From Octopus vulgaris (Eukaryota), in the NCBI GenBank assembly GCA_951406725.2, contig OX597828.1:40920001-40984000 (forward strand): a DNA stretch of 64,000 nucleotides, in the 5' to 3' direction. The notes under the pieces were generated by a model that made no database searches, had not been told where the DNA came from, and saw only the letters and a list, made by a program, of their open reading frames with translations. Numbering within the stretch: the first letter of the stretch is position 1; each line of letters begins with the position of its first letter. Made by a program: the position numbers and the translations under genes. Of the stretch, positions 6,090 through 46,916 are shown piece after piece.

Positions 6090-6301
6090 ACACACATGCA
6101 TGCATATGTAATTGTGATATACTCTTTATACATTTTGCTTGTACAGATTCATGGATGAAGACTTTCTCACTTTCTGTCTGTGTGCATTATGTCATGTGGT
6201 TCAGAAGTATGCTTAGCAACCGTGAGGCTGCAAGTTCAGTCCCACTGCATGGCTCCTATGTCTTCCACTGCAACCACAGGCCAACCAATTCATTGCAAGA
6301 A

Positions 6302-6945
6302 CCAAATTTGGCGGGCAGGACAGATGAAAATTTATATAAAAAACAGAATTAAATGCATACCTCGGTTTCGGCCTTTAACAAAAGAATTACTTACATAATT
6401 CAAATGTCCGTGCTTCATCAGTGCATTCGTTCATTGTAAATGTAAACTGAAAAACTAACCCCAGCTTTCTGTACCATGACAGACACGTGCTTAGTTTCAC
6501 CGATTACATTAGGGATAAAATGTCTTGGCTCTGGCGTGCTAAGAAATTCCTGAAGCGAAGGGCTGCGGTAAATAATTCACTGCGGTTAGTGCTTACTACT
6601 AGAGAACGTATTTATTTCAATATTTAAATAATGAGGGAGATAAATTAATATTAATTTTAACATAACTGAGGTATGCATTTAATTCTGTTTTTTATATAAA
6701 TTTTCATCTGTCCTGCCCGCCAAATTTGGCTCTGGTGTTCGCTGAATTTTTCCTCTAGAGAATTTCCTTGTAGTTTGATCGTTGATGATCTGTTTCTAGC
6801 ATACGGCCGACTTCCTAGCAGTCAAGCCCTGCCAATATACACATATATTAGAATTTTCTCTGACTTCTCAGATTTTTTGTATGCTAGACTACTGGTTTTA
6901 AATTGATATTAAAATTAATATTAATTTATCTCCCTCATTATTTAA

Positions 6946-6949
<4 letters not shown>
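6302..6949. mobile_element. Penelope-like / retrozyme-like element with inverted halves
   Basis: Perfect inverted repeats of 62 bp (6302-6363 / 6668-6729) and 41 bp (6620-6660 / 6909-6949). The minus strand encodes STNRSELFTAALRFRNFL, similar to the PLE C-terminus at 52.5 kb (SRMEIFEPCLHFRRFL). Contains an HHR and ends in (TA)n. Confidence 0.7.
6352..6427 (-). ncRNA. Type I hammerhead ribozyme motif
   Basis: AAUGCA-CUGAUGA-[45-nt stem/loop II]-GAAA-CCGAGG-UA^UGCAUU: perfect 6-bp stem I, canonical core, minimal stem III, GUA cleavage triplet. The base of stem II is imperfect. Confidence 0.75.
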
Positions 6950-6978
<29 letters not shown>

Positions 6979-7062
6979 TATATATATATAATATATATAT
7001 ACATACATATATACATATATACATATATATATATAATATATATATATACATACATACATACA

Positions 7063-7096
<34 letters not shown>

Positions 7097-7162
7097 CATA
7101 TATACAATATAGATATATAGATATATAGATATAGATATAGATACAAGATAGATATAGATATG

Positions 7163-7587
7163 GAACAAAAACAGGACAGTGGAGACATACAAAGAAACCA
7201 AATGAAAACAAGCATAGAAGATCGTTGGACCAGAACAAGAGGAAAATAGTGAATGCTGGGAGAAATATTTTCTTTGAAAGGAGAAAAGATACAAGAAAGA
7301 GAAAAAAACAATCTGTCTCTATTTCTCTCTCTCTCTCCCTCATTCTCTTTTTCTCTCTCTCACTCACACATGGCCATTGTCCATATTTTCCTCACATGAC
7401 CATCTTTCTTTTCCTGCAAGGACATTCAAAGGACTGGACATTTTTTTCTCTGTCTTCTATCTTATCTCTTTGCAAAGAAAATATTTCTCCTAGTATTCAC
7501 TATTTTCCTCTCGTTCTGGTCTAACGACCCTCCATGTTTGTTTTTGTTTGGTTACCTTGTATGTCCCCAATGTCCTGTTTTTTGTTC
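7163..7587. repeat. Diverged inverted repeat of about 145 bp (probable PLE pseudo-LTR pair)
   Basis: 7163-7308 is an imperfect reverse complement of 7443-7587, e.g. gaggaaaatagtgaat / attcactattttcctc. Confidence 0.75.

Positions 7588-9296: not shown

Positions 9297-46916
<37,620 letters not shown>

Follow-up and report, generated by a model that had tools for sequence, protein, structure and literature searches.

A dispersed, protein-less hammerhead repeat in the Octopus vulgaris genome, likely copied into (TA)n by a Penelope-like enzyme from a probably circular RNA

Retrozymes, Penelope-like elements and the octopus family

Metazoan non-LTR retrozymes, in the accessible parts of the papers describing them (PMC7229834; 10.64898/2026.07.22.740005), are non-coding, AT-rich units with one type I hammerhead each, arranged head to tail, predicted to self-pair strongly and co-occurring with Penelope-like elements (PLEs). 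The same sections leave open what moves animal retrozymes and whether PLEs copy circles, although both are the subject of proposals (PMC7229834, PMC4209133), including circle-templated copying of more than one unit (PMC4209133, PMC7229834); PMC4209133 also notes hammerhead pairs 100–700 bp apart on opposite strands. Among PLEs, the described Hydra-clade elements (10.1101/2021.04.23.441226, accessible text) combine a (TA)n target and a hammerhead with partial tandems, an inverted 5'-truncated arm and a tail at one end. The accessible portion of PMC13282606 lists young Penelope families in an octopus and does not mention ribozymes.

Here we analysed a 64-kb stretch of O. vulgaris DNA (the window), in which positions 6302..6949 are occupied by a mobile repeat that encodes no protein and has copies scattered elsewhere; its unit measures about 545 nt and carries a predicted self-cutting RNA. 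The element class, retrozyme, is already known, and the family is an additional member; the original prediction of a retrozyme or mini-PLE named the right class for a non-coding hammerhead unit. Like retrozymes, the family has a type I hammerhead per unit, a short head-to-tail unit, no protein coding and no LTR. It also carries the PLE-type marks of a partial tandem with an adjacent inverted 5'-truncated copy, a tail at one end and a microsatellite target, and lacks the reverse transcriptase plus GIY-YIG open reading frame (ORF) of an autonomous PLE. The window copy is a recent copy of this dispersed unit, and we consider it likely that a PLE enzyme, whose source is probably the Hydra clade, placed it into (TA)n using an RNA template that was probably circular.

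The unit falls inside the 51–972 bp range given for retrozymes in the available text of 10.64898/2026.07.22.740005, and is longer than the 170–400-nt circles of PMC7229834, as far as that source is accessible. Whereas retrozymes are described there as arrays (PMC7229834; 10.64898/2026.07.22.740005), the octopus family is dispersed as arms of 0.1–1.8 units; it further differs in that stem II is long and begins with a non-canonical pair, and in that no parent pseudo-LTR (pLTR) was found. Mobilisation by PLEs is deduced here from the insertion footprint, but in those papers, in their accessible parts, from co-occurrence or pLTR similarity (PMC7229834; 10.64898/2026.07.22.740005). Compared with Hydra-clade PLEs, all of whose features listed above it shares, the family has no ORF and no detectable sequence similarity, and its tail is about 100 nt, against 30–40 bp in the described elements (10.1101/2021.04.23.441226); the two Hydra families of this genome have tails of 70 and 120 nt. 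The non-autonomous elements of Chlamys such as MRC1 are likewise protein-less PLE passengers with head-to-tail insertions; according to the same available text (10.1101/2021.04.23.441226), Chlamys elements mostly lack hammerheads and prefer (CA)n, and their passengers have the parent's 3' sequence; the octopus family differs on these points. Poseidon PAc of Anolis, in the accessible part of PMC11167929, shares two internal starts, an AT-rich target, extension of both strands and an AC-rich stem-loop start, but is autonomous, and its start site is reported as non-homologous to the cut DNA, whereas both octopus sites are AU-rich like the target. Our literature search, conducted outside Repbase/Dfam and bioRxiv supplements, yielded no description of a retrozyme from cephalopods; repeat libraries may already list the family, either as unclassified or under Penelope.

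The copy in the window, its unit and its hammerhead

The window copy is built on two interleaved perfect inverted repeats, as predicted: repeat A (6302..6363) is the exact reverse complement of A' (6668..6729; 62/62) and repeat B (6620..6660) that of B' (6909..6949; 41/41), both being maximal exact matches. With one mismatch allowed, A/A' grows to 6298–6367/6664–6733 and B/B' likewise grows by a few bases (66 and 44 nt in BLAST), and the two arms therefore abut at 6663|6664 with no spacer. Unit positions are numbered from the start of A', which places the predicted cut between 6 and 7 and B' at 242–282. The left arm (6298..6663, minus strand) runs from unit 239 to 66 through B', region Y, the hammerhead and A', and the right arm (6664..6949, plus strand) from unit 535 to 282 through the final 10 nt preceding the cut and then A', X and B'. 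The halves close into a loop of 62+179+41+256 = 538 nt; the predicted unit of about 540 nt thus holds for this copy, while the family measures 540–547 nt and the window copy has a private 7-nt deletion in region Y (6430..6619, minus strand). That deletion and about six private substitutions over about 580 nt bear out a recent insertion, and the CpG observed/expected ratio was 1.07 and 0.66 in the arms versus 0.39 across the window.

The right arm terminates at the distal start site described below, against a (TA)n-rich microsatellite (6950..7160, plus strand) that is the insertion target. The 3' end of the left arm lacks the usual (TA)n flank and adjoins a short interspersed repeat (6195..6297, plus strand), which is interrupted where the arm begins. 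Seven other copies of this short repeat in the window continue into a TA-rich tail, so the tail is the likely target. Its left part has likely been lost since, and such a subsequent deletion accounts most simply for the bare left end. The whole unit is covered in 27 of the family's 65 two-armed insertions, and both arms are needed for this in only 3/65, the window copy included. The neat double overlap that had been singled out is therefore a by-product of chance on top of a real circular unit.

Elsewhere in the window, a 142-nt MITE-like inverted repeat (7167–7308 and 7441–7582; 87% complementary, 132 nt apart) and a Tc1/mariner transposase fragment (839–1337; PF01498, E 1.6e-16) were seen. 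An exon-like frame at 25008–25184 (plus strand) resembles the presumed N-terminus of CUEDC2; it has no Pfam match, and Pfam gave no hit behind either the CUEDC2 or the upstream-gene label of the original prediction. No sign of a host function was found at the window copy.

Exact-motif counts in the 2.8-Gb genome gave 38 occurrences for Y, 76 for the 3' half of the hammerhead and 226 for a 25-mer of A', compared with 0 for reversed control motifs. In other copies, Y and the hammerhead are continuous with A'XB', and B' is continuous with Y; since both junctions of the window loop are colinear elsewhere, the loop is the true unit. The analysis covered 151 distinct insertions with 219 arms, a non-random set of best hits and complete or position-ordered motif samples. 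Hammerhead-to-hammerhead spacing was constant at 540–547 nt, 46/219 arms exceeded 560 nt, the longest reaching 998 nt, and four contained two hammerheads 540–547 nt apart. Together with the colinear junctions, these arms confirm a head-to-tail unit; full dimers or arrays were not seen among the 219.

An older sister family (558 exact matches of a 21-mer) is 63% identical to family 1 and keeps its order, its fold and the B'-Y junction. Its copies (L141-L170, L339-L368) have a unit of about 500–525 nt, are about 86% alike and carry U.U as first stem II pair; a third, more distant relative lies at L398. Two fragments of the family lie 1.6 kb apart in inverted orientation at L253:4161-6097 (G000:C3:121641160-121643100); their 5' flanks are identical, and both were probably carried within another inverted duplication.

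Region Y had been read as PLE-like C-terminal codons, the end of a PLE ORF, and this found no support. No reading frame is kept between family 1 and the sister family, substitutions between them are spread evenly across codon positions, two window translations had no Pfam match, and a Hydra-type endonuclease profile (150 relatives) gave a best E of 0.69 against 108 six-frame unit translations. Region Y is instead non-coding with conserved hairpins and forms one strand of a long-range helix, whose partner sequence lies downstream of the hammerhead. Two natural hammerhead-to-hammerhead monomers, folded as circles, gave z of -4.9 and -5.2 (40 shuffles each). Of 104 predicted pairs assessed in an alignment of 14 natural units, 23 differ between the families at both bases, versus 4–7 in slid controls; this covariation mostly reflects one split between two families, and the structure was derived from the same alignment. 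The B'-Y junction is itself a conserved hairpin, and the monomer is predicted to be highly self-paired.

A motif scan of both strands found a single type I hammerhead in the window, at 6352..6427 on the minus strand. Stem I pairs 6427–6422 with 6357–6352 (6 bp) and is followed by CUGAUGA (6421–6415), a long stem II with a weakened base (6414–6370, a 45-nt region), GAAA (6369–6366), a short stem III CCGAGG (6365–6360) and then UA, with the predicted cut between 6358 and 6357. Rfam did not match this hammerhead to any hammerhead family. The core letters are complete, as predicted. At its base, however, stem II of the window copy reads A.C, G-C, C-G, A.G; this base is absent from the predicted minimum-energy fold, and for its variant (AGC) the junction is not formed in the predicted fold (z -1.2). 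Stem I is paired in 100–107/108 family-1 and 13–15/15 family-2 hammerheads with differing letters, and stem I and stem II pairs 2–4 covary. Only 19/108 and 3/15 hammerheads, respectively, have a Watson-Crick or G-U pair at the first position of stem II, which is non-canonical in the other 89/108 and 12/15. The 5' strand of stem II reads AGCC in 43 of 117 family-1 contexts, AGC in 38, GGCC in 17, AGTC in 9 and otherwise in 10.

Insertion pattern and RNA template

The 151 insertions comprised 85 with one arm, 65 with two arms and one with four pieces. All 65 two-armed pairs were oriented tail-out, and TA/CA runs of the (TA)n type flanked 200/219 arm ends. The ends concentrated at two start sites: a distal one at unit ~282 (120/219; 6935..6951 in the window, plus strand, unit ~272–284), which lies in the loop of the hairpin spanning the B'-Y junction, and a proximal one at ~181 (74/219; 6835..6848, plus strand, unit ~168–181), an AC/AU-rich stem-loop; the remaining 25/219 were elsewhere. 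Exactly one arm ended at the distal site in 60/65 pairs and both arms in none (13.8 expected; binomial P 2e-13). This one-sided distal end is the known Penelope "tail on one end", which, with an inverted 5'-truncated arm, makes up the standard PLE insertion shape (10.1101/2021.04.23.441226, PMC3846280, accessible parts). In vitro, a PLE enzyme used two internal starts and extended both strands (PMC11167929, accessible part), and both the tail rule and the end positions fit this behaviour; the literature search found no paper on PLE twin priming. The two arms of one insertion shared diagnostic alleles in 106 versus 16 discordant cases (shuffled mean 0.18), and therefore both came from one kind of template.

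The inverted half had been predicted to start near the cut site. It does start close by; the right arm begins about 10 nt upstream of the predicted cut and so crosses it, as did 76/95 arms in a position-ordered sample. This start is not special, given that inverted arms begin all over the unit and the excess just 3' of the cut is modest: 5' ends were 3.5-fold enriched at unit 4–17, the 14 nt just 3' of the cut (14/95; nominal P 8e-5), in a window chosen post hoc, with the exact +/-4 window not significant (P 0.23). The excess may point to a small share of linear templates that had been cleaved, or to a pause at stem I.

Successive laps within one arm shared diagnostic alleles in 48 versus 4 cases (0.92; shuffled mean 0.15, maximum 0.35), same-lap and cross-lap distances between insertions were equal (0.0555 vs 0.0554), and separate upstream-lap and downstream-lap lineages were not found. 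Such sharing is predicted by a ring and also by template jumping, but not by linear inheritance without homogenisation. With the head-to-tail unit, it makes the originally proposed copying from circular or concatemeric RNA likely. Contigs of seven sequencing runs guessed to be RNA and of one run of unknown type cover parts of the unit, and are uninformative on ends, strand and circles.

The best-surviving alternative, which we nevertheless judge unlikely, is a non-autonomous PLE passenger copied from uncleaved linear transcripts longer than one unit, with laps homogenised by jumping and a hammerhead that is dispensable and decaying. Decay would suit the succession of stem II from GGCC, basal in the family-1 tree (support 0.86, on a long outgroup branch), through AGCC to AGC, the window's subfamily, whose divergence is the lowest (a median of 1.1%, against 2.2% and 2.7%). 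Dispensability would agree with the accessible part of PMC11167929, where hammerhead mutants did not impair insertion in vitro and the main substrate was unprocessed RNA; in the available text of 10.64898/2026.07.22.740005, 8/9 predicted Xenopus retrozymes showed no cleavage. However, stem I, the core and stem II pairs 2–4 have been kept with compensatory changes over 37% divergence, and the constant hammerhead-to-hammerhead length and the post hoc excess of 5' ends just 3' of the cut also speak against uncleaved templates.

Autonomous Penelope-like elements and the proposed mechanism

Two autonomous families with a CxCX5C linker, of 1091 aa (DKT also seen) and 727 aa, were found in the genome; this linker is a mark of the Hydra clade (10.1101/2021.04.23.441226, accessible text). 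Arms of both families stop in (TA)n at either of two positions beyond the cut, about 35/155 and 37/108 nt away, and the site differs between opposite arms, as in 8/9 pairs of the 727-aa family; a long stem II is likewise present in the hammerhead of the 1091-aa family. A 781-aa family is, by its motifs, presumably Neptune-type, and Neptune-type elements in this genome likewise terminate in (TA)n. Going by the shared footprint, the mobilising enzyme is probably that of an autonomous PLE of the Hydra clade.

Several further elements were observed. The large Hydra-type family (980–1091-aa ORF) at L319, L322 and L323 (G000:C9:84177000, C2:78194000, C19:23215500) has long asparagine-rich ORF inserts and a long-stem-II hammerhead, with two hammerheads 4.2 kb apart at L322, and exceeds the under-3-kb Hydra elements described. 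The 727-aa family (L369-L398) is very young: its copies are near-identical, carry a minimal hammerhead and form many tail-out pairs that use two start sites separated by 70 nt. At L068, L103, L128 and L321 there is a further type I hammerhead family, whose stem II is also long and which has no linked ORF here; it occurs twice in inverted orientation at L103.

Partner searches, which scored the best 150 of up to 18,900 candidates, revealed no parent. No sequence similar to the unit was found at 30 + 20 GIY-YIG loci. The 1091-aa family, sampled at 30 + 20 loci, gave none either (alignment z no higher than 1.8; profile best E 3.4), and at 30 loci of the 727-aa family the sole match, at L398, was a sister-family copy with (TA)n between copy and ORF. 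By tblastn, PLE ORF fragments occurred in 13/267 loci (two ids being one place), in none of the 267 was a PLE ORF contiguous in sense with the unit, and a homologue search with the endonuclease region returned nothing at full length. These results bear on the possibility that all copies derive from a long autonomous PLE, as truncated pieces of its pseudo-LTR, and that the unit is no element in its own right. The autonomous PLEs of this genome do have the same layout of a hammerhead followed by two starts, and the family was inspected in part; but B' runs into Y wherever an arm reaches, in both families and as a conserved hairpin, and with no contiguous ORF in 267 loci and no coding signal we consider this origin for all copies very improbable.

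The insertion of a ring-copied unit would proceed in four steps. First, a copy with two hammerheads, of the kind observed in some arms, would putatively be transcribed. Second, the hammerheads would cut out a 540–547-nt monomer that is ligated into a ring. Third, nicking of the two (TA)n strands by the enzyme would provide two ends, and these would prime cDNA synthesis at separate AU-rich sites inside the unit: ~282 for one, and ~181 or a position upstream of it for the other, where arm ends are observed. Fourth, synthesis would continue across the cut site, over as many as 1.8 laps, and the truncated ends of the cDNAs would be joined, giving the observed tail-out inverted pair. For the window copy, the right arm would have been copied from 282 as far as 535, and the left arm would reach back to 239; likely later trimming of the left outer end produced the neat double overlap.

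Priming from both target ends could in principle be replaced by self-priming (fold-back) on an antisense template, an origin of the inversion proposed for rotifer Penelope elements (PMC3846280, accessible part). Some junctions are near-palindromic, such as unit 103/104 and 27/27, but most join distant unit positions, and the outer ends lie at fixed sense-strand sites beside (TA)n, which leaves fold-back extremely improbable. The chance of an assembly artefact is negligible, with 65 loci following the same grammar at differing junctions, and private changes plus an inter-arm mismatch in the window copy.

Returning to copying from a circular RNA by a PLE enzyme, we tentatively suggest, at somewhat less than even chances, a more specific history: an old self-standing retrozyme lineage without a parent, copied by Hydra-clade enzymes from a single ring, with the two strands priming at their own fixed sites about 100 nt apart and the youngest subfamilies still circularising. 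Part of this suggestion is that circularisation was kept despite the stepwise loss of stem II pairs. If true, the ribozyme would be tuned down, or would work only as a dimer or with a borrowed protein. The family offers countable genomic support, in the form of the PLE tail rule across 65 two-armed insertions and of homogenised laps, and, for the existing in vitro PLE assay, a short natural substrate whose start sites are mapped and whose hammerhead variants form a graded series (GGCC, AGCC, AGC).
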